Below, piece by piece: positions 4,435 to 37,520 of a DNA stretch of 64,000 nucleotides; the first letter of the stretch is position 1; the number at the start of each line of letters is the position of its first letter. The DNA comes from an uncultured Chloroflexia bacterium (GTDB lineage Bacteria > Chloroflexota > Limnocylindria > Limnocylindrales > CSP1-4). The position numbers and the translations under genes are program-made. The DNA is taken from assembly GCA_963743855.1 (NCBI GenBank), contig CAVURK010000006.1, positions 106,382 through 170,381 on the forward strand. Direction: 5' to 3'. The notes under the pieces were generated by a model. It had not been told where the DNA came from. It searched no databases and saw nothing but the letters and a program-made list of their open reading frames with translations.

Positions 4435-5446
4435 TCAGTTGCCGCCGTCCTCGCTCCGCACCATCGCGATCGCGTTCTCCAGGCGGAGCTTGGCGATGGT
4501 CAGGTACTTCGCCAGGTTGGCCCGATCCGTCGCGCCGATCGAACGGACCTCGGCGCTCCCCAGGACCCCGACCAGCTCGTCGACCGCGTCGACGAGGCTC
4601 TGCTTCGCGTTGACCAGGGAGTCATCCGAGATCTCGCGGGGTGGGGGACTGGCCTCGGACGTCCACACGCCCTGTTCCTCGGACGTGTCGGCGTCGGCCG
4701 CCTCCGCGATGCGCGGCTCCGGGACGTCCACGCCGTCATCGACCTCGGTCCCGGGCCGCGCCCGTCGCCCCTCGATCTTGTCGCGCAGCTTGATCAGAGT
4801 CAGCTCACCGCGCGCGACCTGCTCGGCCAGACGCCGGCGCTTCTTGGGGTCCTCGACCTTCATCAGCTCGTAGGCATGGGACAGACTGTCCTTGCGCAAA
4901 GACACCAGCTCGCGGATCTCGGGCGGAGCATCCGCCAGGCGGAGCCGGTTCTCCAGGTATCCCTTGTCCTTGCCCAGCTTGTCCGCCAGCTTGCGGATGC
5001 TGTAGCCGTGTTCGTGGACCATCCGGTCATACATCGCGGCTTCATCGAGCGGCGTCAGGTCCTCGCGCTGGAGGTTCTCGATGATCGCGATCTCCAGCGC
5101 GGTGTCGTCGTCGATGTCCTCGATCAATGCCGGGATGGTCTCGAGACCCGCCAGACGCGAGGCTCGCCATCGACGCTCGCCGGCAACGATCTGGTAGGTG
5201 TTCGGGCCGAGCGGTCGGACAAGGATCGGCTGGAGGACCCCATGCTCGCGGATCGACGCCGCGAGCTCGTCGAGCGCCGCGGGCTCGAAGACCAACCTCG
5301 GCTGTTCCGGGTTCGGCTCGATGTGATCGACGTGGACGATGCGGACTCCGACCGAACGCGTCGGACTGTCCGGCGTCAGCAGGCTGACGATCGCCGGCGA
5401 GAGCTCGGTGTCCTCGGACAGCCGCCGTGCGGCTGCGGCGCGGAAG

Positions 5447-5460
<14 letters not shown>
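4435..5460 (-). CDS. parB: Chromosome partitioning protein ParB/Spo0J
   Basis: [43 protein letters not shown]...[11 protein letters not shown] (ParB box) plus an HTH region; start overlaps the parA stop. Confidence 0.9.
4888..4903. promoter_or_regulatory. 16-bp palindrome GTCCTTGCGCAAAGAC inside the parB coding sequence (third copy of the GTCTTTGCGCAAAGAC motif)
   Basis: Read directly from the sequence; it is the reverse-complement orientation of the copy at 6446-6461 and shares flanks (CTG...ACCAG). Confidence 0.5.
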
Positions 5461-6217
<757 letters not shown>

Positions 6218-6316
6218 CGGGGCATCACCTCAGGATTCTGACGGGCGGCCGGGGCCGTCGGGGGAGGGGAACGAGTCCGTTCATCGTACGCGCCCCGGTC
6301 GGTTTCTGGCACCCGG

Positions 6317-6359
6317 TTATCCACACGCTTCGCGAGTTGTTCACCGAATCTGTGGATAT
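6317..6359. promoter_or_regulatory. Inverted pair of DnaA boxes (TTATCCACA at 6317-6325; TGTGGATAT at 6351-6359) in the parA / pccB divergent intergenic region
   Basis: First box matches the DnaA-box consensus exactly; second matches its reverse complement at 8 of 9 positions; about 25 bp apart. Confidence 0.55.
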
Positions 6360-6445
6360 CCGAGCCGTCCGGACGCTGTCCGTGGAGCGACGGATACGTG
6401 GCGTTCTCCGTCCGAACGAGCCGAGATGCGTGGCTATGATGCAGC

Positions 6446-6461
6446 TGTCTTTGCGCAAGGA
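6446..6461. promoter_or_regulatory. Putative operator: 16-bp palindrome GTCTTTGCGCAAGGAC between a TATGAT -10-like hexamer (6434-6439) and the AGGAGG RBS of pccB
   Basis: Palindrome read from the sequence; it sits 21 nt upstream of the pccB GTG start and is repeated at 8045-8060 and 4888-4903. Confidence 0.6.
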
Positions 6462-6481
6462 CACCAGGAGGTCCGATCCCC

Positions 6482-8036
6482 GTGTCGACGAATGAAGAGC
6501 GGCTCGACCGGCTCGAGCAGATGCGCGTCGAGTCGCAGCTTGGCGGCGGAGCTGTCCGGATCGAACGACAGCACGCGTCAGGAAAGCTGACGGCGCGCGA
6601 ACGGCTCGAGCTGTTGCTCGACCCGGGTTCGTTCGTCGAGCTCGATGCGTTCGTCACCCATCGCGCGACCGGGTTCGGGTTGTCGGAAGAGCACATCCTC
6701 GGTGATGGAGTCGTGACCGGACACGGGACGATCGACGGCCGTCTCGTCTTCGTCTTCAGCCAGGACTTCACAGTCTTCGGCGGATCGTTGTCCGAGGCAT
6801 ATGCCGAGAAGATCTGCAAGGTCATGGATCTGGCGATGCGCGTCGGCGCGCCGATCATCGGTCTCAACGATTCGGGCGGGGCGCGGATCCAGGAAGGCGT
6901 CGCATCGTTGGGCGGCTATGCCGACATCTTCCTGCGCAATGTCCTGGCCTCGGGCGTGGTGCCGCAGATCTCCGTGGTGATGGGGCCGTGCGCCGGTGGC
7001 GCCGTGTACTCGCCGGCGATGACGGACTTCACGATCATGGTCGAGCACACGAGCTACATGTTCGTCACGGGACCGAACGTCGTGAGGACGGTCACCCACG
7101 AAGAAGTGGATTCGGAATTCCTTGGCGGCGCCATGACGCATACGACGAAGAGTGGGGTCGCACATCTCGCCGCAACCGATGAAGCCGAAGCGCTCGACTC
7201 GGCCCGTCGGATCCTTGCCTACCTGCCGCAGAACAATCTGGGTGACGCGCCCTCGGTCGTCTCCACCGATCCCGCCGACCGGATGGATGTCGCGCCTCGA
7301 CCGGATCGTCCCCGACGATCCGCGGACGCCGTATGACATGCACGACGTGATCCGCGGGATCGTCGACGACGGCGCGTTCCTCGAGATCCAACCGGGTTGG
7401 GCGCCGAACATCCTCATCGGCTACGCGCGACTCGGCGGTCGGAGTGTCGGCATCGTCGCCCAGCAGCCGGCGGTCCTCGCCGGGGCGCTGGACATCGATG
7501 CGTCGATCAAGGCGGCGCGGTTCGTCCGCACCTGTGATTGCTTCAATGTCCCGCTGGTCACCTTCGTCGATGTCCCGGGGTTCCTGCCGGGCGTCGCGCA
7601 GGAACACGGCGGGATCATCAAGCACGGCGCAAAGCTGCTGTACGCCTATTGCGAAGCGACGGTCCCGAAGCTGACGGTGATCACCCGCAAGGCGTACGGC
7701 GGCGCCTACGACGTCATGAGCAGCAAGCACATCCGGGCCGACATGAACTTCGCGTGGCCGACCGCCGAGATCGCCGTCATGGGCGCGGCCGGCGCGGTCA
7801 GCATCATCTTCAAGGATGCGATCAGCGCCGCCGACGACCCTGCCGCCGAGGAGGCCCGTCTGGTCGCGGCCTACGAGACCGAGTTCGCGAACCCCTACAT
7901 CGCCGCGTCGCGCGGATATGTCGATGAGGTCATCAAGCCGTCCGAGACACGGCCGCGGCTCATCCGTTCGCTCGAGGTTCTTGCCGACAAGCAGCAGACG
8001 AACCCGAGGAAGAAGCATGGCAACATCCCGCTCTGA
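6482..8036 (+). CDS. pccB: Propionyl-CoA / acyl-CoA carboxylase carboxyltransferase beta subunit (PccB/AccD5-like); one frameshift near 7290
   Basis: N-half ORF 6482..7336 (biotin-dependent carboxyltransferase N-domain, ...[14 protein letters not shown]...) and C-half ORF 7152..8036 (...[19 protein letters not shown]...GGAYDVM...KHGNIPL) are contiguous halves of one ~520-aa protein in different frames. Confidence 0.85.
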
Positions 8037-8044
8037 GGGAACCC

Positions 8045-8060
8045 GTCTTTGCGCAAAGAC
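8045..8060. promoter_or_regulatory. Putative operator: perfect 16-bp palindrome GTCTTTGCGCAAAGAC in the 33-bp pccB-accA spacer
   Basis: Perfect palindrome 10 nt upstream of the accA GTG start (8070); it overlaps the TTG at 8049 that the ORF track used as a start. Confidence 0.6.
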
Positions 8061-8069
8061 GGTCGCTCA

Positions 8070-10304
8070 GTGACGGGTCCGCCGTTCAACCGGGTGCTGG
8101 TGGCCAACCGCGGGGAGATCGCGGTCCGCATCATCCGGGCGTGCCACGAGCTCGGGATGGAGGCCGTGGCGGTCTATAGCGATGCCGACGTCGGCGGCCC
8201 AGCACGTCCGGCTCGCCGATACCGCGGTCCGGATCGGACCGCCGGCACCGACCGAGAGCTACCTGCGGATCGACCGGATCATCCAGGCTGCCCTGGACAC
8301 GGGCGCCGAGGCGATCCATCCGGGCTACGGCTTCCTGGCGGAGCGGGCCGCCTTCGCACGTGCGGTGGAGGATGCGGGACTCGTCTTCGTCGGGCCGTCG
8401 TCGGCGACGATCGACGCGCTCGGCGACAAGCTCCATGCCCGACGGACCGCCCGGGACGTCGGGGTCGCGGCCGTGCCGGGGACCCTCGAGCCGGCACCCG
8501 TCGACCGACCAGACCAGGTCGCGGCGATCGTGGCCGAGGCCGAGGCGATCGGCTTTCCCTTGCTGGTCAAGGCCGCGGCCGGTGGTGGCGGCCGCGGGAT
8601 GCGCCGGGTCGTGGCGGCCAGCGGATCTGCCGGCCGCCCTGGCCGATGGATCGCGCGAGGCGGCATCGGCTTTCGGTGACGGGTCGGTCTATCTCGAGCG
8701 CGAGATCGTCCCGGCGCGCCACATCGAGGTCCAGCTGCTCGGCGATGCCACGGGGCGGGTCGTGGCCATCGGCGAGCGCGACTGCTCGCTCCAGCGGCGC
8801 CACCAGAAGCTGGTCGAGGAGGCACCGGCGCCGGGGCTCTCCGTGGACGAGCGCCGTGAGCTGCACGCGATGGCGGTCAAGGTCGCGACGGCGGCCGGCC
8901 TCCAGAATGCAGCGACCGCGGAGTTCCTCCGAGGCGCCGACGGCTCCTTCTGGTTCCTCGAGGTCAACACCCGACTCCAGGTCGAGCATGGCGTCACCGA
9001 GCTGGTGTCGGGGCTCGACATCGTCCGCGAGCAGTTCTGGTTGGCTGCCGGGCGGCCGCTGTCGGACGACGCGCTCGCCGCCGCCGAGCGGGCGACCGAG
9101 CCGACGGGCCACGCGATCGAGGTCCGGATCGCGGCCGAAGACCCGTCCCGAGACTTCGCCCCGACGCCGGGTCGGGTCGCGGCGGTGGGTGATGCCGGCC
9201 GGTCCTGGCGTCCGTGTCGATACCGGGATCGAGGCCGGCGACCGGGTCCCGGCCGAGTACGACAATCTGATCGCCAAGGTCCTGGTCCACGCCGGGGACC
9301 GCGGAGCGGCGATCGCGCGTCTTCGCCGGGCGCTCGACGAGACCGAGATCGGGGGCATCCAGACGACGCTTCCCTTCCATCGCTTCGTGGCGCGCAGCCC
9401 GTCCTTCGCCGCTGCCGAGCTGTCGACGGGCTGGGTGGACGAGCAGTGGGATGGACCGACCGCGTTCGGTCGGGCTGCCCGTGTCGCGCTGCTGGCGGCC
9501 GGGCTCGACGCCATCACGAGCGGCCACGCGATCGCGACCGGGGGACCGCCCACGTCGCCAGCGGCCGGTCCCGGTGGGGCAGGGGACGACGGCTGGCGCC
9601 GGGCGGCCCGGGAAGCCGCCACCGACCGGTGGCCGCGGTGAGCACCCAGCCGATCCGTGAGACCGATGCCGGGGGCGACGACGCCAGCGACCCGGGCGCC
9701 GGTCCGACGGCCGAACCCGCCGCGGATCGGATCGTCGACCCTCGGGCCATCCGGGTCGCGCTGGGACCCGCGGGAGGGCACACGGGCGTCCCGCCTGTCG
9801 TCATCGGACCGGGGCCTGCCGCCGACGACGGGGTCGTCATCGTCGATGGCGAACCCCGTCAGCTCCGGCTCGAGCGGTTCGATCCCGTCCACACCATCCT
9901 TGTCGAGGTCCTCGACGACCCGACCCGGACGCCGGTCCTGCTCCTGGCCGATGATGGCCCGGCCGGCCAGGGCGGCCGTCGCCAGGTCGTGGTCGACGGC
10001 TGGCTGGTCGAGGTGGAGGTCGGATCCGAGCGCCACGCACTCCCTTCGCGAACGCGCTCGTCGAGGCGGGTCGGCGACCTCGCACGACGGACCGACCGAG
10101 GTCCGTGCCATCATCCCGGGCCGGGTGGTGTCGGTGTCGGTCGTCGCAGGCGACGCCGTGCTGGCCGGCGAGCAGCTCCTGGTCGTGGAGGCGATGAAGA
10201 TGCAGAACGAGCTCCGGGCGCCACGGGACGGGGTCATCTCGCGGGTCGCCGTCGGGGCCGGCCAGACCATCGACGTCGGTGACGTCATGGTGGTCCTCAC
10301 GTGA
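8070..10304 (+). CDS. accA: Acyl-CoA carboxylase alpha subunit (biotin carboxylase + C-terminal biotin carboxyl carrier domain, EAMKMQNE); at least 4 frameshifts
   Basis: [32 protein letters not shown] (frame 0), [47 protein letters not shown]...[17 protein letters not shown] (frame 1), [21 protein letters not shown]...[16 protein letters not shown] (frame 2), [32 protein letters not shown]... (frame 0), then the biotinyl domain ...[12 protein letters not shown]... ending at 10304. Confidence 0.8.
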
Positions 10305-14364: not shown

Positions 14365-14847
14365 CGCGTCTCGGCCGCCAGCGATTCGGCGTAGAAGATC
14401 ATGTCGAGCTCACCCGGCGAGCGGCCGGCTGCGGTCAGCAGCGCGGCCGCCTCGGAGCGGTGCTGGGTGCCGTGGTTGACGACGTGGGCGAGCGCCTGCC
14501 ACAGCGTGACGCCGCCCTCGGACTGATTCATCGACGCGTCATCGAGCCGTGGCGAGCCAGGCGTCGAGCGCGGACCCATTCGTCCTCCCAGGCCGCGCGC
14601 AGCTCCTCGACGGTCGGGCAGCGGCTCGTCCTCCGGCGTCGGGAAGCGGCTCTGATCCGCCGGACAGGCCGTGGCGCCAGCGCTGGTGCGCGCCGAGCGC
14701 GTGGACCAGGATGCCGCCGAGGCCGCGCTCGCCGATCGCGTTCGGTGCCGCCCACGTCGCCTCGTCGATCCCGGCCGCCGCATCGAAGACCAGGTTGGTC
14801 GCCCAGCGGTCGTAGTCGAACAGGTAGCGGATGTCGGAGTGCAGCAT
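14361..14847 (-). CDS. DinB/YfiT-like metal-dependent hydrolase family protein; one frameshift near 14560-14600
   Basis: N-part [35 protein letters not shown]...[12 protein letters not shown] (frame of ORF 14539..15741) and C-part ...[27 protein letters not shown]... (ORF 14361..14783). Confidence 0.6.
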
Positions 14848-14854
14848 CGCCGGG

Positions 14855-15741
14855 TCAGCCGCGGTAGCCCGCGTCGCGCAGGAGAGCCGGCAGCTCGGTC
14901 GGGGAGCCGGCGACGCGGAACCCGGCGGCCTCGAGCGCGGCGACCTTGGACGCTGCCGTCCCGGCTCCGCCCGAGATGATCGCCCCGGCGTGGCCCATCC
15001 GCTTGCCCTCGGGCGCGGTCCGGCCGGCGATGAAGGCGACCTTGGGGATGTCGCGCGAGGTGCTCCGCCGCCCATGCCGCGGCCGTCTCCTCGGCGGCGC
15101 CGCCGATCTCGCCGATGAGGACGATCGCGTCGGTCGCGTCGTCCGCGGCGAAGCAGCTGGAGGACGTCGAGGAATGTCGTCCCGATGATCGGGTCGCCGC
15201 CGATCCCGACGCACGTCGACTGGCCGACCCCGGCGTCGGTCATCGCCTGGACCGCCTCGTAGGTGAGCGTGCCGGAGCGGCTGACGACGCCGACCCGGCC
15301 CTCGCGATGGATCGAGCCCGGGATGATCCCGACCTTGGCCGAGCCGGGCGAGGTGGCGCCCGGGCAGTTCGGTCCGATCAGGCGCGCGCCGGCGCGCTTG
15401 ACCATCTCGACCGCCGGGATCATGTCGAGGGCGGGGATCCCCTCGGTGATGCAGAAGATCGTGGCGATCCCCGCCGCGGCGGCCTCCATCACGGCGTCCG
15501 GCGCGCCGGCGGCCGGGACGAAGATGCAGGACGTGTTCGCGCCGGTCTCGCGGACGGCCTCGGCGACGGTGTCGTAGACCGGGACGCTGCCGTCGAGCGC
15601 GGTCTGGCCGCCCTTGCCCGGCGTCACGCCGGCGACGATCCGGGTCCCGTAGGCCTGCATCGCCCGGCTGTGGAAGTCGCCCTCGCGCCCGGTGATGCCC
15701 TGGACGACGAGCCGCGTCTCGGGTCCGACGAGGATGCTCAT
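14855..15741 (-). CDS. sucD: Succinyl-CoA ligase alpha subunit; one frameshift near 15180
   Basis: [45 protein letters not shown]...IGPNCPG...[11 protein letters not shown] (ORF 14539..15741) continues as ...[25 protein letters not shown]...VAALEAAG (end of ORF 14855..16261). Confidence 0.85.
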
Positions 15742-24662: not shown

Positions 24663-25610
24663 ATGAACGAAGGGCACCTGCCGGTGCTGTTGGAGGAGGT
24701 CATCGCGATGCTCGCCCCGGCTGCCGGCAGCCTTCACATCGATACCACCCTGGGCGGCGGTGGGCACACCGAGCGGATCCTGGAGGCCGCCAACCCAGAC
24801 GGCCGGCTCCTCGGGCTCGACGCCGATCCGGCGGCGATCGCCCGGGTCGAGGCCCGGCTCCGTCCGCGGTTCGGCGATCGGCTCGTCCTCCGCCAGGCGA
24901 ACTTCCGCGACCTGGCGACCGTGGCGCCGGCGGCCGGCTTCGGGGCCGTCGACGGCTGCCTGTTCGATCTCGGGCTGTCGAGCTTCCAGCTGGCCGACAC
25001 CGACCGCGGCTTCGGCTTCCGGGCCGGCGGTCCGCTCGACATGCGCTTCGACACGAGCCGTGGCGTCCCGGCCGCCGAGCTGCTCGCGACCCTCGACACC
25101 GGCGAGCTGACGGCTCTCTTCCGACGCTACGGCGAGGAGCCGAAGGCGCCACGGATCGCCCGGGCCATCGTCGACGCGCGACGGGTCGCGCCGGTCTCGA
25201 CCGCCGAGGAGCTGGCCGCGCTCGTCGAGCGCGTCGCCCCGCCGAACCCGCGGATCCGCCGCCGGACCCACCCCGCGACGCGCGTCTTCCAGGCCCTGCG
25301 GATCGCCGTCAACGAGGAGCTCGAGGCGCTCCAGGCCGGTCTCGCCGCCGCCCTCGACCTGCTCCGACCGGGCGGCCGGCTCGTCGTCCTGAGCTACCAC
25401 TCGCTCGAGGACCGGATCGTCAAGCGGTTCTTCCAGGCCGAGCGGCGCGGCTGCGTCTGCCCGCCCGAGGTGCCGGTCTGCGTCTGCGGCCGGAACCCGC
25501 GCCTGCGGCTGGTGACCAGCCCGTCGCTGACGCCGACCGAGGCCGAGATCGCCGCCAACCCCCGAGCTCGGAGCGCCCGACTGCGGGCCGCCGAGCGTCT
25601 CGCCGCATAG
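24663..25610 (+). CDS. rsmH: 16S rRNA (cytosine1402-N4)-methyltransferase RsmH (MraW)
   Basis: MNEGHLPVLLEEVIAML...DTTLGGGGHTERIL...FDLGLSSFQLADTDRGFGFRAGGPLDMRF...; GGAGGAG RBS; intact. Confidence 0.9.
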   Translation: MNEGHLPVLLEEVIAMLAPAAGSLHIDTTLGGGGHTERILEAANPDGRLLGLDADPAAIARVEARLRPRFGDRLVLRQANFRDLATVAPAAGFGAVDGCLFDLGLSSFQLADTDRGFGFRAGGPLDMRFDTSRGVPAAELLATLDTGELTALFRRYGEEPKAPRIARAIVDARRVAPVSTAEELAALVERVAPPNPRIRRRTHPATRVFQALRIAVNEELEALQAGLAAALDLLRPGGRLVVLSYHSLEDRIVKRFFQAERRGCVCPPEVPVCVCGRNPRLRLVTSPSLTPTEAEIAANPRARSARLRAAERLAA

Positions 25611-25636
25611 CCCCGCACCGGAAGGAGGAGCCCACG

Positions 25637-26222
25637 ATGAGCAAGCGTCATCCAGTCCAGCCGTCGCAAGACCTACGGGCGCCGCCAGCACGAGGTGCGC
25701 GAGCGGCAGCGATCGCGGCCAGCACAGCGAGGGCTTCGAGTTCGAGCTCGGCGAGTGGGGCTCGGCCGCCCAGGCCGATCCGCTCGGCTTCCTCGATCCG
25801 CGCAGCCCGCGCATCCGCTTCGCGCTCGGCGACTGATCGATGGCCGTCTACGAGGGCGCCCGTCCTCGCACCATCGCGACTGCCGCGCGGTCCGCGGATC
25901 GCCGAGGGACCGACGCTCGACCGCCGCCGGGTCCGTGGCGCGTTCCGTGCCGGACGCCGGACGAACCGGCTCGGGCTCGTCCTCGGGGCGATCGTCGTGG
26001 CGTTCATGCTCGCGTTCTTCTCGCTCGCCCAGCAGGTCCGCGTGTCGGCGACCGGGCTCGACATCGGCCGGCTCGAGCTCGACCGCCAGCGGTCTCGACG
26101 ACCGGCGGCCGAGCTCCGGTCCGACCTGAACCGGCTCGGTCGCGAGCCGGCCGATCCGCAAGCAGGCCATCGACGCGGGTCTCGGGCAGCTGTCCGAGCC
26201 GATCGTCCTGACGCCGCGCTAG
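25637..26222 (+). CDS. ftsL: Cell division protein FtsL-like (TM + coiled coil); frameshifted
   Basis: ATG 25637 with GAAGGAGGAG RBS; ...NRLGLVLGAIVVAFMLAFFSLAQQVRVSATGLDIGRLELDRQR...ELRSDLNRLGREPA...; the product runs in two frames and stops at 26220-26222. Confidence 0.6.
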
Positions 26223-26237
26223 ACGATCGCGCGACCG

Positions 26238-28123
26238 ATGCTGGGCCGTACCGATTCGCGCCGCCGGCTCCTCTTCCTGCTCGTCGTCTTCGTGCGTCGG
26301 TTCGTGCCTGCTGACCGCGCGCCTCGCCTACTGGCAGGTCATCGATCGCGATCGGCTGGCCGCCGAGGCTCAGTCCCAGACGACGTCACGCTCGACGACG
26401 CCGAGCAAGCGCGGCGACATCTACGACCGGACCGGGACCGTCGTCCTGGCCACGACCGTCCAGCGCGAGCGCCTCGTCGCGGCACCCGGACCAGCTGACC
26501 CCGGACAGCAGCGCAAGGCGACCGTCGCCGACGCTGACCGGGATCCTCGGGCTCGACGACGCGGACGCCGCGGCCCTCCGCGACAAGCTGAGCGGCGACG
26601 CCAAGTACGTCATCCTCCGCCACGGCCTCGACCGCGCCGTCGCCGACCAGATCCGCGCCGCGATCGCGGCCAAGACGGTCGTCGCCGTCTCGCTCGAGCC
26701 CGAACCCGAGCGCGTCTACCCGCAGACGGGCGGCGGCCCGGACTCGAGCCTCGCCGCGCACCTGCTCGGCTTCGTCAACCGCGAGGGCGAGGGCCAGTAC
26801 GGCGTCGAGCAGGCAATACCAGTCGACGCTCGCCGGCCAGCCGCGGATCGTCGTCGCCGACCGCGACGCGAGCGGCCAGCCGATCCTCGACGACGCGACG
26901 GTCGTCCAGCCGCGGCGAGCCCGGCACGGACCTGACGCCTGACCATCGACGCCGGTCTCCAGCTGCGCGTCGAGCAGGAGCTCCTGGCGGCGTGGGTCGC
27001 CGACAAGGCCAAGCGCGCCTCGGCCGTCGTGATGGATCCGTACACCGGCGAGGTCTACGCCGATGGCGACCTATCCCGTCGTACGACGGCAACGACTACA
27101 AGGCGATCGCCGCGAGCCGATCCGTCGCGCTTCATCGATCCGGTCGTGGCCAGCGTCTACGAGCCCGGGTCGGTGTTCAAGATGATGACCGCGGCGGCCG
27201 CCCTCGACGAACGGCACCGTCACGCCGATGACCCGGATCAAGGACGTCGGGACGCTCCACCTGGACAAGGGCAAGACCAAGATCGACGACGCCGACCGCA
27301 AGGGCATGGGCTGGATGACGTTCGAGGACGGCGTCGCCTATTCGCGCAACGTCGTGGCGGCCAAGGTCGCGCTCGGGCTCGGCAAGAGCACACGGGAGTC
27401 GTCCGCGATCCTCTACGACATGTGGCGCGGCTCGGCTACGGGCAGCCGACCGGGATCGACGTCGCCGGCGAGGTCGGCGGCCTGGTGCGCGACCCGGGGC
27501 TCACGCCGTGGCGCCAGATCGACCTCGCCAACGGCGCCTTCGGGCAGGGCGTCGCGGTCACCCCGATCCAGCTGGCGACGGCCTACGCGGCGCTCGACAA
27601 CGGCGGGACGCTCGTCCAGCCGCACGTCGTCAAGTCGATCGGCGACCGCGAGGTCCAGGTCCCGGCCACGCGCGACCGCGGTCATCGATCCGTCCGTGTC
27701 GCACGACGCTGATCAAGATGATGCAGCACGTCATCACCGAGGTGCCCGTTCTACCGCGACCGGACCCTCGTCCCGGGCTACGACGTCGGCGGCAAGACCG
27801 GCACCGCGCAGATCTGGGACCCGAAGGCGAACCACGGCCGCGGCGCCTGGAAGAACAACCTGTTCAACTACTCGTTCGTCGGCTACATCGGCCGCCAGAC
27901 CGGCGTCCCGGACCTCGTCGTGGCGATCCAGATCGAGGAGGGGACACCGACCGTCGCTCCGGGTCGGCCACCTCGAGATGCCGGTGATGTCCTTCGAGCT
28001 CTTCCGGCGCATCGCGACCGATGCGATCACCACCCCCGACCTGCTGCCGACCGCGCCGACCGGCGACCCTGGCCACAGCCCCGGACCGGTGACGCACGGC
28101 CTGTGCGACACTGGCGACCGTGA
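26238..28123 (+). CDS. ftsI: Penicillin-binding protein FtsI / PBP2B-like transpeptidase; many frameshifts (more than 6)
   Basis: MLGRTDSRRRLLFLLVVFV... (TM), ...TSKRGDIYDRTGTVVLATT..., ...VMDPYTGEVYA..., ...ASVYEPGSVFKMMTAAAAL (SxxK), ...RNVVAAKVA..., ...GYDVGGKTGTAQ (KTG), ...PVMSFELFRRIATDAI; assembled across all three frames. Confidence 0.7.
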
Positions 28124-29568
28124 CCGACGTCGATCCGTCGACCCCGGCTCCGGGGCAGCCCCCGGCGCCCGCCTTCACGGCCGACGACCTGGTCCGCCTG
28201 ACCGGCGGCCGGCTCCTCGCCCGGTCCGACCGACCCATCCGCGGCGCCGCCGTCGATTCGCGCGCTGGTCCGACCCGGCGAGGTGTTCGTGGCGCTGCCC
28301 GGCGAGCGCATCGATGGGCACGCCTATCCTCGCCGACGCGGTCGCCCGGGAGCGGCCGCGCTCGTCGTCGACCCGCCAGGTCGCCGACCCGTCGACTGCT
28401 CGACGACGTGACCGTCATCCGCGTCGCCGAGCCGCTGGCCGCACTCGGGGCGCTGGCCGCCGGCTGGCGTCGCCGGTTCGATCCGCTCGTCGTCGGGGTG
28501 ACCGGGAGCATCGCCAAGACCTCGACCAAGGAGGCCATCGCGGCCGTCCTGGCCGGTCGCTTTCGGACGCTGCGCAACGAGGGCAACCAGAACAACGAGG
28601 TCGGCCTGCCGCTGACGCTCCTCCGGCTCGGGCCGGAGCACGAGGCCGCCGTCCTCGAGATGGGGATGTACGTCGGCGGCGAGATCGCCGAGCTGGCACG
28701 GATCGCCCGGCCCCGGATCGGGGTGGTGACCGCGGTCCAGCCGGTCCACCTGTCCCGGATCGGATCGCTCGAGGCGATCGAGGCGGCCAAGGGCGAGCTG
28801 CTCGAGGCGCTCCCGCCCGACGGCACCGCGATCCTCAACGCCGACGACCCGATCGTCCGCCGGATGGGCTCGCGGTCCGCGGCCCGCAGCCATCAGCTAC
28901 GGCTTCGCCGACGACGCCGACGTCGGCGCCGAGGCGGTCAGCTCGGCCGGTCTCGACGGGATGCGCTTCACGCTCCGCGCCGAGGGCACGCGCCGGCCAG
29001 TGACGATCCCGACGCTCGGGCGACTGTCGGTCCACAACGCGCTCGCGGCCGCGGCCGTCGGTCGCGCGGCCGGCCTGACGCTCGACGAGATCGAGGCGGG
29101 TCTCGCGGGCGGCTGGTCCGCGCCGCATCGGGTCCAGCTCGTCCGTCTCGGAGCCGTGACGCTGGTCGACGACACGTACAACGCCTCGCCCCGATCCGTG
29201 GTGGCCGCCCTCGAGCTGCTGGCCGGGCTGCCGGGCCGGCGGGCCGCGGTCCTCGGCGAGATGCTCGAGCTGGGCGAGGCCAGCGACGAGGGCCACCGCG
29301 TCGTCGGCGAGGCGGCCGCCCGCACGGTCGACTGGCTGGTGGTCGTCGGTCGCGGGCGCCGCCGGGATCGCCGACGGGCGCCCTGGCCGCGGGTCTCGAC
29401 CCGAGCCGCGGATCCTCCGCGTCGCCGACGCGGAGACGCGCCCGCGATGCCGTCCTGCCGCGACTGCGCGACGGCGACGTCGTCCTGGTCAAGGCCTCGC
29501 GCGGGATCGGGCTCGATCGCCTGGTCGACGGGCTCCGACACGACCTCGGCGAGCGCACCGCTCGATGA
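28120..29568 (+). CDS. murF: UDP-N-acetylmuramoyl-tripeptide--D-alanyl-D-alanine ligase MurF; frameshifted
   Basis: ...LVRLTGGRLL...GAAVDSR..., VGVTGSIAKTSTKEAIAAVL...LRNEGNQNNEVGLPLTLL (MurF NxGNxNN motif), ...AILNADDPIV..., ...LVKASRGIGLDRLVDGL...; no murE gene lies between ftsI and murF. Confidence 0.8.
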   Translation: MTDVDPSTPAPGQPPAPAFTADDLVRLTGGRLLARSDRPIRGAAVDSRAGPTRRGVRGAARRAHRWARLSSPTRSPGSGRARRRPARSPTRRLLDDVTVIRVAEPLAALGALAAGWRRRFDPLVVGVTGSIAKTSTKEAIAAVLAGRFRTLRNEGNQNNEVGLPLTLLRLGPEHEAAVLEMGMYVGGEIAELARIARPRIGVVTAVQPVHLSRIGSLEAIEAAKGELLEALPPDGTAILNADDPIVRRMGSRSAARSHQLRLRRRRRRRRRGGQLGRSRRDALHAPRRGHAPASDDPDARATVGPQRARGRGRRSRGRPDARRDRGGSRGRLVRAASGPARPSRSRDAGRRHVQRLAPIRGGRPRAAGRAAGPAGRGPRRDARAGRGQRRGPPRRRRGGRPHGRLAGGRRSRAPPGSPTGALAAGLDPSRGSSASPTRRRARDAVLPRLRDGDVVLVKASRGIGLDRLVDGLRHDLGERTAR

Positions 29569-30550
29569 CCATCGAGCTGATCCAGGGCCTCCTCCTCGCC
29601 TTCGCCCTGATGGTCATCCTGATGTCGCCGTACATCCGGCTGCTCCACGCGCTCGGCTTCGGCAAGCGGATCCGCCAGGACGGCCCGGAGAGCCACTACA
29701 TCAAGGAAGGCACGCCCACGATGGGCGGCCTGCTGATCGTCGTGGTCGTCATCGGGATCTACTTCTTCCTCCGCGAGGGCCCCGGACGCGGCGACCTTCG
29801 CCCCGCTCGCGGCGCTGGCCGGCGTCGGGCGCGCTGGGCGCCTTCGACGACTACCTCAACGCCCGGACCGGGGAGGGGATCCGTGCCCGCCAGAAGCTGA
29901 TCTGGCTGACCGTCGTCGCCGTCGTCGCGGCCTGGCAGATCCAGCAGACCTACGACATCACGGCCATCGCGGTCCCGTTCGTCGGCGCGGTCTCGGTCGA
30001 CCCGCGGATCTACGTGCTGTTCGCCGCCTTCGCGATCGTCGCCGCGGCCAACGGCGTCAACATCACCGACGGCCTCGACGGGCTGTCGGGCGGGACGGTC
30101 GCCATCGCGTTCGTCGCCTACATGCTCATCGCGCTGCTCAACACGCCGGCCCAGCCGAACCTCGCGCTCCTGTGCGCGCTGATCATCGGTGCGCTGCTCG
30201 GGTTCCTGTGGTTCAACGTCCATCCCGGCGCAGATCTTCATCGGCGACTCCGGGGCGCTGTCGCTGGGTGCCACGCTGGCGGTCACCGCGCTGATCACCG
30301 GCCAGATCCTGGTCCTCCCGCTGATCGGGATCATCTTCGTCATCGAGACCGCGTCGGTCATCCTCCAGGTCTGCGTACTTCAAGGCTGTCCGGGGGCAAG
30401 CGGCTCTTCCGGATGAGCCCGATCCATCACCACTTCGAGCTCGGCGGCTGGGACGAGGAGAAGATCACGATCCGGTTCTGGATCGTCGGCATCCTCGCCG
30501 CGCTCCTCGGCGTGACGCTCTTCCTGGCCTCGGTGGATCGGCTGCGGTGA
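29565..30550 (+). CDS. mraY: Phospho-N-acetylmuramoyl-pentapeptide transferase MraY; at least 3 frameshifts
   Basis: [59 protein letters not shown]..., ...[15 protein letters not shown]..., ...[16 protein letters not shown]..., ...[25 protein letters not shown]... Confidence 0.8.
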
Positions 30551-32123
30551 CGACGATGACGACGACCGCGACCGATCGACCTCGACCGCCTGACGATCGA
30601 CGCGATCCGTGCCGGCGCTCTGCGCGACCGGCCGGTGACGGTCCTCGGCCTCGCTCGCAGCGGTCTGGCGCTGGCCCGCTTCCTGGCCGATGCCGGGGCG
30701 CGCGTGACGATCTACGACGGCCGGTCCGCGGACGAGCTGGGCGACGCGATCGCGGCCCTGGGTGGACGGCCCGTGAGCGCTTGCCCTCGGACCGGACGTC
30801 GATCCTGCGTCGACCTGGGCCGCGGCCGAGCTGGTCGCCACCTCGCCCTCGATCACGCCCGACTACCCGACGACCGAGCCACGTCTGCGCGGCGGCGCTC
30901 CGAGCCCTGGTCGATGCCCGCGCCGGCGGCGACACGACGGTCCCGGCGCTCGTGTCCGAGGCCGACCTCTTCCTGCGGCTCTGCCCGGCCCCGACGATCG
31001 GGGTCACCGGGACCAAGGGCAAGACGACGACCGTCATCGCTTGACCGCGGCGCTCCTGGCAGCCGACCCGGGCCATCCGGTCGTCCTCGGCGGGAACATC
31101 GGGATCCCGATCGTCGAGCGACTCCTCGAGCTGACGCCCGACCATCGCGTCGTCGACGAGCTGTCCGAGCTCCAGCTGCCGACGCTGTCGCGCGGGACGA
31201 CGGTCGCGGTCTACACGAACGTCACCTCGGACCATCTCGATCGGCACGGGTCGCTCGAGGGCTACCGGCGGGTCAAGCGCCGGCTGGCCGAGCTGGTCGA
31301 TCCGACCGGCGCGCTCGTCCTCAACGCCGAGGACCCGATCGTCGCAGGCTACGCGGGTCCGGAGGGCGTGCGGACCATCCGCTACCGCCGCGACAGCCCG
31401 GCGCCCGGCGGCCTCGGCGTGGTCGACGGCTGGATCGTGGCGGACGGCGTGGGGCGGCTGGCAGTGGCCGGCGGCGGACCCGCGACGGCGACGACCAGCG
31501 GCCGGATCATGCCGGTCGACGAGCTGGCGATCCCCGGCGCGCACAACGTCTCGAACGCCCTGGCCGCGATCGCGGTCGCGCTCCTCTTCGGCGTCGAGCC
31601 GGAGGCCATCCGAGCGGCCGGCGGCGGCGTTCCACGGGCGTCGAGCACCGGCTCGAGCCCGTCGCGCTCGATCGACGGTGTCCGGTTCGTCAACGATTCG
31701 CAGGGAACCCAGCCCGACGCCGTCATCGCGGCGCTGCGCGCGTTCGACGCCCCGATCGTCCTGATCGCCGGCGGCCGCGACAAGGGGATCGACCTGACCG
31801 ACCTCGCCCCGGTCGTCGCCGAACGGGCCGCCGCCGCGGTCCTCATCGGCGAGAGCGGCCCGACGCTCGAGAGCTCGTTCCGGGCGGCCGGGCTCACCCG
31901 CACGGCACGCGCCGCGACCCTCGAGGAGGCCGTCGCGGCGGCGGATGCGATCGCGCGCGACCTCCTGGCCGGCGACCACGACGGCCCGCGCCGGGCCACC
32001 GTCCTGCTCAGCCCGGCCGCCGCCAGCTTCGACATGTTCGTGGACTATGCCGCCCGCGGCCGGGCGTTCAAGGCAGCCGTCGCGGCGCTCGCCGCCACAC
32101 GAGCCAGGGAGGGGGACCGATGA
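30547..32123 (+). CDS. murD: UDP-N-acetylmuramoylalanine--D-glutamate ligase MurD; frameshifted (N-terminus in two frames plus one internal)
   Basis: ...RPVTVLGLARSGLALARFLADAGARVTIYDGR..., ...IGVTGTKGKTTTV (P-loop), then ORF 31041..32123 ...HPVVLGGNIGIPIV...NVTSDHLDRHGSLEGY...LLSPAAASFDMF...; the stop overlaps the ftsW ATG. Confidence 0.8.
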
Positions 32124-33431
32124 ACCTCGCGCCACCGATCCCACGCCTCGAGCGGCCGCGTCGCGAGCCGATCGCCAAGGGAGACGATCGGACGACGGCC
32201 AACCGGACGCCGGTCAAGAGCCGCGCCGGGGCCGTCCGCCGCGAGCGCCACCAGGCCGACTACGTGATCCTCGTGGTCGTCGTCGCCCTGACCGCGGTCG
32301 GGATCCTGATGGTCTACTCGTCGTCCGCGCTCAAGGGCTACCTGTCGCAGGACGCCGACACGTTCGCGACCGTCGGGCCGCAGATCCAGTGGGCGATCCT
32401 CGGCATCGTCGCGATGCTCCTGATGATGCGGGTCGACTACCGCTACCTGCGCCTCGTGTCGGTGCCGTTCTACCTGTTCGCCATCGTCCTGCTCGTGCTC
32501 GTCTTCGTCCCGAGCCTCAACATCGTCGTCGGCGGGTCGGCGCGCTGGCTCAAGCTCGGGCCGCTGCCGGCGATCCATCCGGCCGAGATCGCCAAGCTCG
32601 CCCTCGTCATCTACCTGGCCCACTGGTTCGCCAAGCGCGGGAGCGGCATCCGCGGCTTCTGGGGCGGGACCGTCCCGTTCCTGATCATCGTCACGCCGAT
32701 CCTCGTCCTCGTCTTCAAGGAGCCGGACCTGGGCACGACCGGGGTCATCACGCTCACCGCGTTCACGATGTTCTTCGTCGCCGGGGCGAACATCATGCAT
32801 CTCGCGGTCATGGCCGCCGGCGGAGCGATGGCGATGATCGTCGTCGGGCTGCGCGGCTACCAGATGCAGCGGATCCTGGTCTGGCAGGACCCCTGGCTCG
32901 ACCGTCTCGGCGCCGGCTTCCACACCGTCCAGGGGCTCCTGGCGCTCGGCGTCGGCGGACTGCTCGGGACGGGTCTCGGCGGGAGCCGGGTGTCGGTGCC
33001 CAACGCGTTCAACGACTTCATCTTCGCCGAGGTCGGCCAGGAGTTCGGGATGCTCGGGCGGGATCGTCGTGATCGCCCTGTTCCTCCTGCTGGCCTACTC
33101 GGGGATCCGCATCGCGCTGTCGGCGCCCGACACGTTCGGGGCGTTGCTCGCGGCCGGGATCACCGCCTGGATCTGTCTCCAGGCGTTCGTCAACATCGGG
33201 GTGGTCGTGGCGCTGCTGCCGATCACCGGGATCACCCTGCCGTTCATCAGCGCCGGCGGGTCATCCCTCATCATCAGCTTTGCCGCGATCGGGATCCTGT
33301 TATCGATCTCGCGCGAGACCGTGGAGAAGGGGACGTGGAACGACGATGCGATTGCTGATCGCGGCGGGCGGAACGGGCGGACACATCTACCCGGCGCTCG
33401 CCGTCGCCCGCTCGCTCGGCACGACGCCTGA
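32120..33431 (+). CDS. ftsW: Peptidoglycan glycosyltransferase FtsW (SEDS family); one frameshift near 33060; the annotated 3' end overlaps murG by 86 nt, so the true stop is probably earlier
   Basis: MNLAPPIPRLE...YVILVVVVALTAVGILMVYSSSAL...; C-part ...LLAYSGIRIALSAPDTFGALLAAGITAWICLQAFVNIGVVVALLPITGITLPFISAGGSSLII... Confidence 0.8.
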
Positions 33432-34507
33432 CGCCCCCGAGCTGCGCTGGCTCGGCGGCCATCGCGGTCTGGAGGCGACGCTCGTCCCGGCGGCGCACAT
33501 CCCCCTGCGCCGCCTCGCCGCACGCTCGCTCCGGACGACCGAGGCCGACGTCCACGCCGTCCTCGACCCGATCCGCCTCGGCCTGTCCGTCCCGCAGGCG
33601 ACGGCCATCCTGCTCGCGGAGCGACCGGCCGCGATCTTCACGACCGGCGGCTACGTCGCGGTCCCGGTCCTCATCGCCGCCGCCCCGCTCGGGATCCCGG
33701 TCGTGCTGTGGGACGGCAACGTGATCCCGGGCCGCGCGGTCCGTGCCACGGCCCGACTGGCTGCGGCGCTCGCCGTCTCGTTCGACGCGACGTGCCGGGC
33801 GCTGGCCGGCGCGGCACCGGGCCGGCCGTGCTACGTGACCGGCACGCCGATCCGCGACATCCGCGCCACCGACCGGGCGGCGGCCCGGCTGCGGATGGGG
33901 ATCGCGGACGATGAGCGGGTCCTGCTCATCTTCGGCGGCTCGCAGGCCGTCCGCCGGTTCAACGCCGCCGTGGCCGAGGCCCTGCCCCGGCTGGTCGAGC
34001 GGGTGACGGTCATCCACGTCACCGGCGACGACGGCTACGCGGCCGCCCTGGCCGGGCGCGAGGGCCTCCCCGAACCGATCCGGCAGCGCTATCGGCCGTA
34101 CCCGTTCCTGCGCGACGAGATGCTGGCCGCACTCGCGGCGGCCGACCTGGTCGTCGGGCCGGGCCGGCTCATCGACGCTCGCCGAGGTGACCGCGCTGGG
34201 CCTGCCGATGGTCGTCGTGCCGTATCCGCACGCCGCCGGCCACCAGCGGGCGAACGCCGCGAGCCTGGTCGCCGCCGGGGCCGCGCGCCTGGTCGATGAC
34301 GAGGCCTTCGACGCCGGGGCGCTCGTCGAGGCCGCTGGACTCCTCGACGACCCGGTCACGCACGCGGCGATGTCGGCCGCGGCCCGGGGCCTCGGCCGGC
34401 CCGGCGCGGCCGACGCCGTCGCGGAGCTCGTCCTCGCGGCGGCGGCCCGGCTGCCCTTTCCCGAGCCGACCGAGATCGAGCGCCGCGCCCGGGGCCAGGC
34501 GGCGTGA
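33346..34507 (+). CDS. murG: UDP-N-acetylglucosamine--N-acetylmuramyl-(pentapeptide) pyrophosphoryl-undecaprenol GlcNAc transferase MurG; one frameshift near 34170
   Basis: MRLLIAAGGTGGHIYPALAVA... (G-loop 1), ...ERVLLIFGGSQAVRRFN..., C-part ...LGLPMVVVPYPHAAGHQRANAASLV... Confidence 0.85.
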
Positions 34508-35468
34508 TCGCCGGCTTCGACGCGATCGCGACCGGGACGGACATCCAGCGCCGGATCGGCGTCAAGACGTCGCGCGACGAGCCGCTCGCCCGGTTCACGA
34601 CGATGCGGGTCGGCGGCCCGGCCGACCTGTTCGCCACGGTCCACAACGCCCACGAGCTGCGCGCCCTCGTCCGCTTCGCCCGGACCCGCGGACTGCCGCA
34701 TTTCGTGCTGGGGCGGGGGAGCGACCTGGTCATCGCCGACGCCGGGATCCGCGGCCTCGTCATCCAGGTCCGGGCCGAGGGATCGCGCACCGACGGCGAA
34801 CGCTACACGGCCGAGGCCGGCATGCAGATGGCCCGCGCCGCGACCGAGACCCAGCACGCCGGCCTGACCGGTCTCGAGTTCGGGCTGGCGATCCCGGGGA
34901 CGGTCGGCGGTGCCGTCTGGGCCAACGCCGGCGCCCACGACGCCGACATCGCGGCGGTCCTCGAGTCGGCCCGCGTCCTCGCGGCCGACGGGACCGAGAC
35001 GATCGTCCCGGCCGCCGAGCTCGGGCTGTCCTATCGCGACAGCCGGTTCAAGGCGTCCGACGACGGGGCGCCGCCCGAAACGCCGCGCGATGTCGTCGTC
35101 GACGCGACATTCCGGCTCGCCGCCGCCGACCCGGACGTGATCAAGGCGACGGCTCGACGAGATCCGGCACTGGCGACAGGCACATCAGCCGCTCGGGCTG
35201 CCGTCGGCCGGGAGCGTCTTCCGCAACCCGCCGGGCGACTCGGCCGGCCGGCTGATCGAGGCGGCCGGACTCAAGGGGCTGCGGATCGGCGGCGCGGTCG
35301 TCTCCGAGAAGCACGCCAACTTCATCGTCAACGACCAGAAGGGCCGGGCGGCCGACGTCCGCCGGCTGGGCGAGCGGGTCCGGGCCGAGGTCCTCGCCCG
35401 GCACGGGGTGACGCTGGCCTTCGAGATCGAGTTCGTCGGTGACTGGACCGGCTGGGAGGCGGCGCCAT
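34504..35468 (+). CDS. murB: UDP-N-acetylenolpyruvoylglucosamine reductase MurB; frameshift near 35190
   Basis: ...RFTTMRVGGPADLFATVHNAHEL...FVLGRGSDLVIAD..., C-part ...SVFRNPPGDSAGRLIEAAGLKGLRIGGAVVSEKHANFIVN...; GTG overlaps the murG stop. Confidence 0.8.
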
Positions 35469-36587
35469 GACCGAACGGCCGCCGATCGTGGTCCTGCTCG
35501 GCGGTCCGTCGGCCGAGCACGACGTCTCGATCGTGTCCGGGACCGCGATCGCCGCGGCACTGGCCGACGAGGGCTTCGCCGTCGAGCAGGTCCTGATCGA
35601 CCTCGACGGCGCGCTGGTGGTGGCTGCCCGCCGGACATCGGCGGGACGACCGGCCGGGCGCCGCCTACGACGACCCGCCGGCGCTCGGGGCGACGGGTCC
35701 GGTCACGCTCGGTGCGGCCATCGACCGCCTGGCGGCCGCGCGGCCCGCGCCGGTCGTGGTCATCGCTCTCCACGGTCCGTTCGGCGAGGACGGCACCGTC
35801 CAGGCACTCCTCGAGGCGGCCGGGCTGGCCTACACCGGCTCGGGCGTGGCCGCCTCGGCGATCGGGATGGACAAGACGATCTTCAAGCGGCTGTGCCGCG
35901 GGATCGGCCTGCCGGTCGTCGACTGGCGCGAGGTCCATGCCGCGCGCTGGGCGAACGACCCGGCCGCCGTTCGCGCCGAGCTGACGGCCTTCACCGCCGC
36001 GACGGGCGATCCGCGGCTGATGGTCAAGCCGGCCCGCCTCGGGAGCTCGGTCGGGATCACTCTCGTCCACGATCCATCCGAGCTCGACGCCGCGCTCGAG
36101 ACGGCGTTCCGACACGACACGCTGGCACTCGTCGAGACGTACCTGGCCGGCGCCCGCGACCTCGAGGTCTCGGTCATCGGCAACGGCCCGGGAGACCTCG
36201 AGCTGTACGGACCGGGCGAGATCATCTCGGGCCACGAGTTCTACGACTATGCCGCGAAGTACACGGCCGGCCTGTCCGAGACCTCGACCCGCGCCGAGGT
36301 CACCGATCGCCAGCGGGTGACGATGCAGAAGATCGCGCGCGACGCCTACCGGGCGATCGGCGCCGAGGGGTTCGCCCGCGTCGATTTCCTGCTGGCCGGC
36401 GAGACGATCATCCTGTCCGAGATCAACACGATCCCCGGGCTTCACGCCGATCAGCCTCTTCCCGACGATGCCGGCCGAGGGCGGCTACACGTTCGGCTCG
36501 GTCTGCACCCGGATCGTCGAGCTGGCGATCGAGCGTCACGCCGCCCGGGCCGGCCGGCGCCTGACCGCCGCGGACCTGCCGCGATGA
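35467..36587 (+). CDS. ddl: D-alanine--D-alanine ligase; frameshifted
   Basis: MTERPPIVVLLGGPSAEHDVSIVSGTAIAAAL... then ...VIALHGPFGEDGTVQALLEAAGLAYTGSGVAASAIGMDK...ARVDFLL...EINTIPG(F)T...; the ATG overlaps the murB stop. Confidence 0.8.
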
Positions 36588-37456: not shown

Positions 37457-37520
37457 GTTGGCGGAGCGGGTCGCCGTCGGGTAGCCTTGCCCAAACCATT
37501 GGAGCGAGGACGACCACCCC

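Follow-up and report, generated by a model that had tools for sequence, protein, structure and literature searches.

A conserved trio of putative DnaA boxes next to the inferred parA promoter in Limnocylindria (Chloroflexota)

Why would apparent binding sites for DnaA, the initiator of replication, stand in front of the chromosome partition genes parA and parB at a locus where the usual neighbors of the origin are missing? The question is raised by a 64-kb stretch of DNA (70.8% GC) from a member of the Chloroflexota, class Limnocylindria; we refer to this whole stretch as the window, and positions are counted along it. A preliminary description of the window reported an inverted pair of DnaA boxes at 6317-6325 and 6351-6359, about 25 nt apart and about 100 bp from the parA start, in the divergent intergenic region between parA and pccB, which encodes a carboxyltransferase. 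The coordinates and the matches were confirmed, and the gene annotation agrees with the placement. Alignment with the corresponding regions of relatives revealed a third box between the other two, at 6337-6345, which had been overlooked. We consider it somewhat probable, on comparative grounds, that this trio is the DnaA-binding module of a DnaA-dependent parAB promoter, which would tie parAB expression to replication initiation.

The module lies in the 264-bp intergenic region between parA and pccB. Box 1 (6317..6325, plus strand), TTATCCACA, agrees with the DnaA-box consensus at 9/9 positions, with 0 mismatches; it begins 100 bp upstream of the GTG start codon of parA (6217) and is the box closest to the putative parA core promoter. 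Box 2 (6337..6345, plus strand), TTGTTCACC, is oriented like box 1 and follows 11 bp past it. It is weaker and fits TT[A/T/G]TNCAC, matching the strict consensus at 6/9 positions and departing from the relaxed form TT[A/T]TNCACA at positions 3 (G) and 9 (C). A G at position 3 of DnaA boxes is usual in high-GC bacteria. Box 3 (6351..6359, minus strand) reads ATATCCACA on the minus strand and TGTGGATAT on the plus strand, has one mismatch (8/9), and converges on box 2, from which 5 bp (GAATC in the window) separate it. Boxes 1 and 3 have 25 nt between them and lie together within 43 bp.

Relatives of the window were represented by 80 species-representative genomes with ParA proteins 82-95% identical, nearly all of them metagenome-assembled genomes (MAGs) assigned to Chloroflexota or Candidatus Limnocylindria/Limnocylindrales. 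On a complete chromosome (OY970218.1, 3.62 Mb), parA is located near 3.365 Mb. The flanks of +/-10 kb around parAB from these genomes, together with the window, gave 81 pieces (1.39 Mb); 78 intergenic regions upstream of parA were aligned, and the 77 species with the module entered the per-position box tables. The best 120 matches listed in a protein search for ParA homologues were all at least 89% identical, and the breadth covered is that of the class. An independent set came from a metagenome scan keyed on a neighboring 18-bp palindrome and not on the boxes, which yielded 120 contigs, 46 of them with adequate sequence upstream of parA, and reached ParA proteins of 66-70% identity. The loci L001-L080 are those of the genomes, higher numbers include the metagenome contigs, and L081 is the Escherichia coli chromosome used for a comparison below. 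Written as a searchable string, the trio is TCCACA-N11-TTNTNCAC-N5/6-TGTGGA.

The trio is present upstream of parA in 77/78 species-level relatives within the Limnocylindria and, with the same gaps, in 40/46 metagenome contigs, where the identity of ParA falls to 67%. The other six contigs mostly carry variant forms; one of them (L105) is truncated at the contig edge, and another (L124) is an unrelated low-GC contig with a ParA of 40% identity. The preliminary description had named the parA upstream regions of relatives as the place where a lack of conservation would speak against its proposal, and the boxes proved to be conserved there. The layout is the same throughout: box 1 and box 2 point in one direction with 11 bp between them, and box 3 faces box 2 at a distance of 4-5 bp. 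The gap between boxes 1 and 2 is 11 bp in 76/77 species and in 40/40 metagenome modules (20 from start to start), and that between boxes 2 and 3 is 5 bp in 55/77 species and 4 bp in 22/77 (13/14 from start to start).

The substitutions found within the boxes also follow a pattern. Among the 77 modules, box 1 is TTATCCACA in 56, TTGTCCACA in 17, TTTTCCACA in 3 and ATATCCACA in 1, so that positions 2 and 4-9 are invariant, position 3 is A, G or T, and position 1 is A in a single species (the one with ATATCCACA). Box 2 is TTGTTCACC in 50 modules and TTGTGCACC in 22, with other forms in the rest; position 5 alone varies freely (T51/G25/C1), there is some change at position 9, and GAG precedes the box in 58/77. 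In divergent lineages box 2 comes closer to the consensus, with TAATCCACC in L143 and TCATCCACC in L132. Box 3 occurs as ATATCCACA (47), TTATCCACC (12), CTATCCACA (5), TTGTCCACA (3) and other forms, with no variation at positions 4-7, almost none at positions 2 and 8, and the remainder at positions 1, 3 and 9. T4, C6 and A7 are thus invariant in all three boxes, and so is C8 except in one box 3 sequence. The published DnaA-box consensus, TTWTNCACA, is degenerate at positions 3 and 5 (PMC13438810). Apart from single or rare exceptions, the substitutions seen in the 77 species are limited to positions that DnaA tolerates (3 and 5, partly 1 and 9). We infer from these patterns that the three motifs are DnaA boxes, to which DnaA would bind. 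Strong purifying selection has kept the site throughout the class, and it is thus, to judge from the comparison of sequences, functional.

The same substitution patterns bear on whether the module might instead be an operator of another protein that merely resembles a DnaA box, either a transcription factor or ParB/ParA acting in autoregulation. The recognition helix of ParB is diverged in this class, and the core TCCAC/TTCAC is common to DnaA boxes and parS half-sites, both of which speak for such an operator. On the other hand, box 1 is a 9/9 DnaA consensus and the changes obey DnaA-box rules at three independent sites, while an arrangement of two direct motifs and one opposed motif with gaps of 11 and 4-5 bp is unlike the palindrome expected of a dimeric helix-turn-helix protein. 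Moreover, ParB has a far better candidate site in the multi-copy palindrome described below, a copy of which lies inside parB itself, and ParA is without the N-terminal DNA-binding extension according to the Pfam annotation. No regulator (transcription-factor) gene was found in synteny with the module in the annotated window and flanks of the relatives. We therefore regard an operator of this kind as improbable.

A few loci depart from the common form. The sole relative without the module (L008:4675-4845) has a deletion that joins TTATC of box 1 directly to GCAAGGACA of the palindrome and leaves an intergenic region of 141 bp, which is either a real deletion or an artefact of MAG assembly. In L171 the palindrome lies between boxes 1 and 2, and the sequence beyond resembles the start of a tRNA gene. 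Two extra one-mismatch boxes flank the trio in L010 and L020, at about -162 and -93 from parA.

Chance is ruled out as an origin of the module by its conservation over about 120 genomes and contigs and by the exclusivity of its motifs: all 58 occurrences of TTATCCACA and all 20 of TTGTCCACA in the 1.39 Mb fall in the module and 0 elsewhere, where composition would lead one to expect 1.2 and 2.9. The preliminary description had already argued from the AT-richness of the 9-mer that it was improbable by chance. For a single box this was overstated, since the expected number of boxes with at most one mismatch is 1.45 per window, the observed number is three, and 16/100 shuffles reach three; what makes the pair non-random is its grouping within 43 bp together with its conservation. 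The third of these near-consensus boxes, CTATCCACA on the minus strand at 52740-52748, forms the -10 part of a canonical promoter (TTGACA-17-GATAGT, 52721-52749, plus strand) upstream of a gene for a peptide-binding protein, and is probably not a DnaA site.

That this other near-box is truly a -10 element is a point for considering the module as a set of ordinary promoter hexamers, and the inverted repeat of boxes 1 and 3, which reaches 12 nt per arm (CGGTTATCCACA and TGTGGATATCCG, 92% complementary), likewise invites a reading as a DNA or RNA hairpin, that is, a cruciform, an attenuator or a terminator. We consider these explanations, like chance, barely plausible. The arms do not covary, so the repeat is not a hairpin: changes in one arm are left uncompensated in the other, 41/500 shuffles reach the covariation score and 68/500 the percentage paired, and no Rfam family matched at the module. 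The candidate sigma-70 hexamers TGAACA-17-GATAAC on the parA strand were rejected, as the last base of the would-be -10 is an invariant C where a T is expected at -7, conservation extends over the whole 9-mer and not just the hexamer, an inverted duplicate of the 9-mer is present, and a consensus scan gave no promoter in 6100-6600.

What the module may do is best approached through its position relative to the neighboring elements. In the 78 aligned regions, five conserved islands stand in otherwise variable GC-rich DNA: the ribosome-binding site of parA, the parA -10, the box segment, the element GCTATGATG and the 18-bp palindrome. The ribosome-binding region (6218..6232, minus strand; GAGGTGATGCCCC) appears in the conservation profile just ahead of the GTG. 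The inferred parA -10 hexamer (6283..6288, minus strand) is TACGAT, with the class consensus TAGCAT (TAnnAT); on the plus strand it reads AT[G/C][G/C]TA in 76/77 species, and its invariant T1, A2, A5 and T6 around a variable center are the signature of a -10 element. Transcription of parA would then start near 6276, which would put the boxes at about -41 to -49, -61 to -69 and -75 to -83. On the other side, the inferred -10 hexamer of pccB (6435..6440, plus strand) is TATGAT, with GCTATGATG as the conserved element.

The distance from box 1 to the putative parA -10 is 27-30 nt in 76/77 species. In contrast, box 3 lies anywhere between 8 and 210 nt from the pccB -10 in the 77 species, and box 1 lies 81-148 nt from the start codon of parA, the length of the 5' untranslated region being variable as well. 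The main argument for a role in transcription is that the spacing is rigid toward the -10 and free on every other side, because of which we propose that the trio acts via RNA polymerase at the parAB promoter. The module also follows parA and not its neighbor. In L097, L118, L151 and L154, with ParA 66-73% identical, pccB and pccA are missing and mcm (methylmalonyl-CoA mutase) is divergent to parA, and both the trio and the palindrome are kept; since the trio stays beside parA where mcm replaces pccB, the module belongs to parA. A DnaA-controlled parAB promoter was among the possibilities raised by the preliminary description, and of these it is the one that the fixed -10 distance and the association with parA favor, DnaA binding being deduced from the boxes.

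Under this proposal, DnaA would bind the trio, probably in the form of a small oligomer whose assembly begins at the consensus box 1, and the bound DnaA would set parAB transcription according to the level or activity of DnaA in the cell. The trio abuts the putative parAB core promoter, and such control would couple the supply of partition proteins to replication initiation. DnaA can activate or repress transcription, as at nrdAB. Activation is our guess for the sign of the effect, because the boxes are upstream of the core promoter and not over it, a -35 is lacking, and the precedent in Pseudomonas aeruginosa (see below) is one of activation. No -35-like hexamer was seen at parA, and this is a trait of the parA promoter and not of the genome, because the canonical TTGACA-17-GATAGT exists elsewhere in the window.

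Several considerations weigh against a DnaA-dependent parAB promoter. The parA -10 and transcription start were deduced from conservation, and the scan of 6100-6600 shows no full consensus promoter; the sign of regulation is, as said, a guess; and the box preference of the class's own DnaA is assumed from the universality of the consensus. In E. coli, DnaA binding in vivo prefers two direct boxes 2-3 bp apart (PMC11317965), and the module is without such a pair, its close pair being convergent at 4-5 bp, which is the geometry of the DnaA-reactivating sequences (DARS) of E. coli. Direct double boxes of the E. coli type beside box 1 or box 3 were also considered and rejected, the flanking 9-mers being unconserved. 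Finally, in about 15 species box 3 is just 8-11 bp from the pccB -10, and an effect on pccB is therefore possible.

The closest known parallel is found in P. aeruginosa, where DnaA boxes upstream of the p1 promoter of gidAB-parAB bind DnaA and raise expression, and where their deletion lowers ParB (Wawrzyniak et al. 2026, PMC13438810). In both cases boxes (6-10 in oriCII in P. aeruginosa) are located upstream of a promoter that drives parAB, an arrangement whose logic is to tie the provision of the segregation machinery to initiation. The P. aeruginosa boxes, however, lie in an oriC-like region beside the classical origin cluster, where they precede the -35 of the gidA promoter by at least 130 bp, and parAB are distal in a four-gene operon. 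In the Limnocylindria there is no gidAB/rsmG or dnaA nearby, the three boxes abut the putative parA core promoter rigidly, and the system is known from its sequence. A consensus box with a weaker partner near a promoter is also seen at the double DnaA box sites of E. coli (Stringer et al. 2024, PMC11317965) and at its dnaA, nrdAB, mioC and polA promoters, although the E. coli pairs, unlike those described here, are direct and 2-3 bp apart. The cis regions upstream of parAB in Deinococcus radiodurans (cisII/cisMP; PMC7671480) are similar in place, and they bind both DnaA and ParB. They differ in being AT-rich iteron arrays and origins of secondary replicons, whereas the module lies on the main chromosome and has neither iterons nor AT-rich DNA.

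The convergent boxes 2 and 3 raise the possibility of a DARS-like or titration site, at which head-to-head DnaA would regenerate ATP-DnaA or DnaA would be sequestered, as at datA or the box clusters of Bacillus subtilis, so that initiation and not parAB would be regulated. The core of DARS1 and DARS2 was reportedly described by Fujimitsu in 2009. In these sites a head-to-head box pair separated by 5 bp drives the release of ADP from DnaA (Sugiyama et al. 2019, PMC6868365). Read from the E. coli chromosome, DARS1 is TAATACACA-tgg-TTATCCACA-ggaat-AGTGGATAA, and it has in common with the module that two of three boxes share a direction and one is opposed. The convergent pair of the window, TTGTTCACC-GAATC-TGTGGATAT, has the orientation and, where the gap is 5 bp, the spacing of DARS1 box II and box I, and the remaining box is oriented like box 2, as in DARS. 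DARS1 itself is in the promoter region of uvrB, so DARS and promoter roles can coexist. The likeness ends at the outer box: in DARS the consensus box is central and the direct box (box III) is 3 bp away, whereas the consensus box of the module is the outer, promoter-proximal one and the distance is 11 bp. Furthermore, a rigid spacing to a -10 is not expected of a pure DARS or titration site, and we know of no DARS outside the gamma-proteobacteria, those described being from E. coli and its relatives.

With respect to titration, the DnaA-box clusters of B. subtilis outside oriC (Okumura et al. 2012, PMC3245932) are, like the module, small intergenic groups away from the origin, some of which regulate their neighbors and which together modulate initiation, and a functional interplay connects them with Spo0J/Soj. 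They contain more boxes and lie close to the origin, and the soj promoter is not among them. By comparison, datA is defined by a cluster of 4-5 boxes plus an IHF site. Three boxes would make a poor sink, and no AT-rich site of the IHF type is evident in the intergenic regions. Of the datA/DARS-like site suggested in the preliminary description, the DARS part has thus gained in substance through the convergent 5-bp pair, and the datA part does not fit. Taken together, a DARS-like or titration function in place of parAB regulation appears quite unlikely to us.

The intergenic region holds a second conserved element, the 18-bp palindrome, which is not a DnaA box and which connects the locus with a further possibility, that of a centromere. 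Its copy 1 (6446..6463; TGTCTTTGCGCAAGGACA) follows directly after the putative pccB -10. Copy 2 (4887..4904) is inside parB at about codons 186-191, encoding VSLRKDS, and copy 3 (8044..8061; CGTCTTTGCGCAAAGACG), with 2 mismatches, is between pccB and pccA; no further copies with at most 3 mismatches were found in the 64-kb window. As TGTC[C/T]TTGCGCAA[A/G]GACA, the palindrome occurs in 1-4 copies in 79/81 Limnocylindria pieces, at about +1313, -230, -1.8 kb and -3.3 to -3.9 kb from the parA start in L001-L080. The orthologue of copy 3 is found 1.8-1.95 kb from parA in many relatives and upstream of the biotin carboxylase gene in L096. In the metagenome sample, nearly all high-GC matches fall in the parB-parA-pccB-pccA-mcm stretch, the few elsewhere lying downstream of der-gpsA (L100) and near a gene with an NrS-1-type polymerase domain (L094), and the low-GC matches look like chance.

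The copy within parB is found at the same codons (VSLRKD[T/S]) in 76/78 genes, where the codons chosen are unusual. Leucine is encoded by TTG in 58/62 cases, as compared with 7% of parB leucines overall, and serine by TCT in 39/76, as compared with 4% overall, with TCG and AGC never used there. This copy is maintained against codon usage, i.e., by selection at the DNA level. Canonical parS, the 16-bp palindrome TGTTNCACGTGNAACA, is absent at up to 3 mismatches in the window and at up to 2 in the 1.39 Mb around parAB of the 81 genomes. Nor does the module have the form of a parS, as 25 bp separate the arms formed by boxes 1 and 3, and those formed by boxes 2 and 3 are non-identical. The recognition region of ParB (residues about 160-200) is diverged as well, with ...SLSHAYEL where B. 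subtilis Spo0J has LGKSRPHIANHLRLLTLP...SMGHGRTL; the recognition-helix residues contrast with KSRSHVANTLRLL. The ParB of Thermus is similar to Spo0J in this part, and both Noc and the parS-binding ParBs conserve the residues that have diverged here. Based on these observations, the palindrome probably represents a candidate cluster of non-canonical parS sites. Alternatively, the presence of copies ahead of pccB, pccA and mcm could mark it as an operator of a propionyl-CoA regulon, an explanation that is weakened because it leaves the parB-internal copy unexplained. No published report of such a palindromic site was found in the literature searched.

If the palindrome is a parS, the trio could be a DnaA site linked to the centromere, as in Caulobacter crescentus, at which DnaA would license or trigger ParABS segregation instead of, or besides, acting on transcription. 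The module is placed between two copies of the palindrome, the best parS candidate of the class, 60-250 bp off. In C. crescentus, parS is about 8 kb from Cori. There, as found by Mera et al. (2014) according to a review (PMC6399470), boxes within the parS region are bound by DnaA, and the centromere needs DnaA-ATP for its translocation even without replication. Both systems would have initiator sites next to the partition site of the parAB locus and not within the origin itself. The two differ in that licensing of centromere movement has been shown and parS is canonical in C. crescentus, while the Limnocylindria have a candidate parS and a fixed spacing to a promoter element. It is this spacing that speaks most directly against a centromeric function, as the fixed distance is to the parA -10 and that toward the palindrome varies widely (judging by the pccB -10 adjacent to it), and the palindrome is itself only a candidate. 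We thus consider a centromere-linked role unlikely.

A more speculative combination of these elements can also be envisaged. With parAB uncoupled from the dnaA/rsmG cluster, the locus might be a self-contained control point of segregation, where the diverged ParB would load at the non-canonical parS TGTCYTTGCGCAARGACA, one copy of which is kept in parB by selection on the DNA, and where the trio with its DARS geometry would either act at the centromere on the nucleotide state of DnaA, by recycling or sensing it, or license segregation in the manner of Caulobacter. We regard this scenario as doubtful; if true, DnaA sites of the DARS-like or centromere-coupled kind would for the first time extend beyond the Proteobacteria.

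The remaining possibility is that the trio is oriC, half of oriC, or the decaying remnant of an origin. It is suggested by the usual location of parAB near oriC and by the divergence of gene orientation at this intergenic region. Nevertheless, the module has only three boxes, or four in L010 and L020, where oriC usually has at least five, and the intergenic DNA around them is rich in GC and differs in length among the relatives. An AT-rich unwinding element is missing from the 78 intergenic regions, which reach a maximum of 64% A+T per 25 bp, and the most A+T-rich 25-bp windows, where listed, overlap the boxes or the palindrome (boxes 2 and 3 in the window itself). None of these 78 regions has three or more tandem triplets resembling DnaA-trios, and no other cluster of at least three boxes within 300 bp occurs in the 1.39 Mb. 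The GC skew inside the window tracks gene orientation.

The genes that usually mark the origin are likewise missing. None of dnaA, dnaN, rsmG or the rpmH-rnpA-yidC-rsmG block is present among the Pfam-annotated open reading frames (ORFs) of the window or in the flanks of the relatives. A tblastn search for DnaA, made with a B. subtilis query and without a positive control, gave no match in the window, in the 80 flanks of +/-10 kb or in the 120 metagenome loci, in agreement with the annotation. The preliminary description was accurate in noting the absence of rsmG, dnaA and dnaN, but the purifying selection seen across the class contradicts its suggestion that the boxes may be left over from an origin-proximal arrangement: a relic is not expected to be conserved base for base, and a site held under such selection is not a vestige. 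An origin, whether active or decayed, is accordingly very improbable here.

Considering these comparisons, it is already known that DnaA boxes outside oriC regulate neighboring genes, that DnaA controls parAB, with one experimental precedent (P. aeruginosa, 2026), and that DnaA is present at a centromere, again with one precedent (Caulobacter). What is new here, as read from the sequences, is that the locus belongs to another phylum and is detached from the origin gene block, and that the layout is a different one, in which the trio abuts the putative parA core promoter and includes a head-to-head pair of the DARS type. A DnaA-dependent parAB promoter in the Limnocylindria would follow the same logic as that of P. 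aeruginosa in a deeply branching, uncultured class of soil bacteria, in the form of a rigid module kept over at least 77 species. This suggests that the coupling of the initiator to the supply of ParAB or to centromere function is a recurrent solution that has been selected independently of gene order. The conserved gaps and the head-to-head pair also provide a natural experiment on the arrangement of DnaA protomers outside the origin. In addition, co-evolution of a chromosomal parS with its ParB becomes tractable through the palindrome and the diverged ParB helix, with bearing on how ParB specificity can change without loss of segregation.

The genes around the module are those of an ordinary main-chromosome region. 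The parA gene (5447..6217, minus strand) encodes a chromosomal Soj-type ParA ATPase of 256 amino acids (families AAA_31, CbiA and ParA), and parB (4435..5460, minus strand) a protein of 341 amino acids with ParB_N and HTH_ParB domains, in which the recognition helix is diverged. The divergent neighbor pccB (6482..8036, plus strand) is split by a frameshift near 7287-7336. The order parB-parA followed by divergent pccB is kept in 77/77 relatives with adequate sequence. By Pfam annotation of the ORFs, one side of the locus contains PspC/LiaF, an acyltransferase and UbiA ahead of parB and parA, and the divergent side contains pccB, pccA, methylmalonyl-CoA mutase and epimerase, then succinate dehydrogenase subunits and RNase H. 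Further along are the dcw cluster from mraW to ftsZ, aconitase, glycine-cleavage genes and peptide ABC transporters. The flank past parB in the relatives holds PspC, LemA, a histidine phosphatase and a T2SSE ATPase.

Besides pccB, several genes of the window are broken or fused by frameshifts (7287-7336, 8182-10304, 14539-15741, 28961-30550 and 35756-39542). They comprise pccB in two pieces, pccA in three pieces, sucD, murF-mraY, ddl-ftsQ and ftsA-UPF0047. The many split and fused genes therefore suggest a long-read assembly with indel errors and not real pseudogenes. The dcw cell-division cluster (24663-41010) is about 18-35 kb from parAB and lies on the opposite strand.

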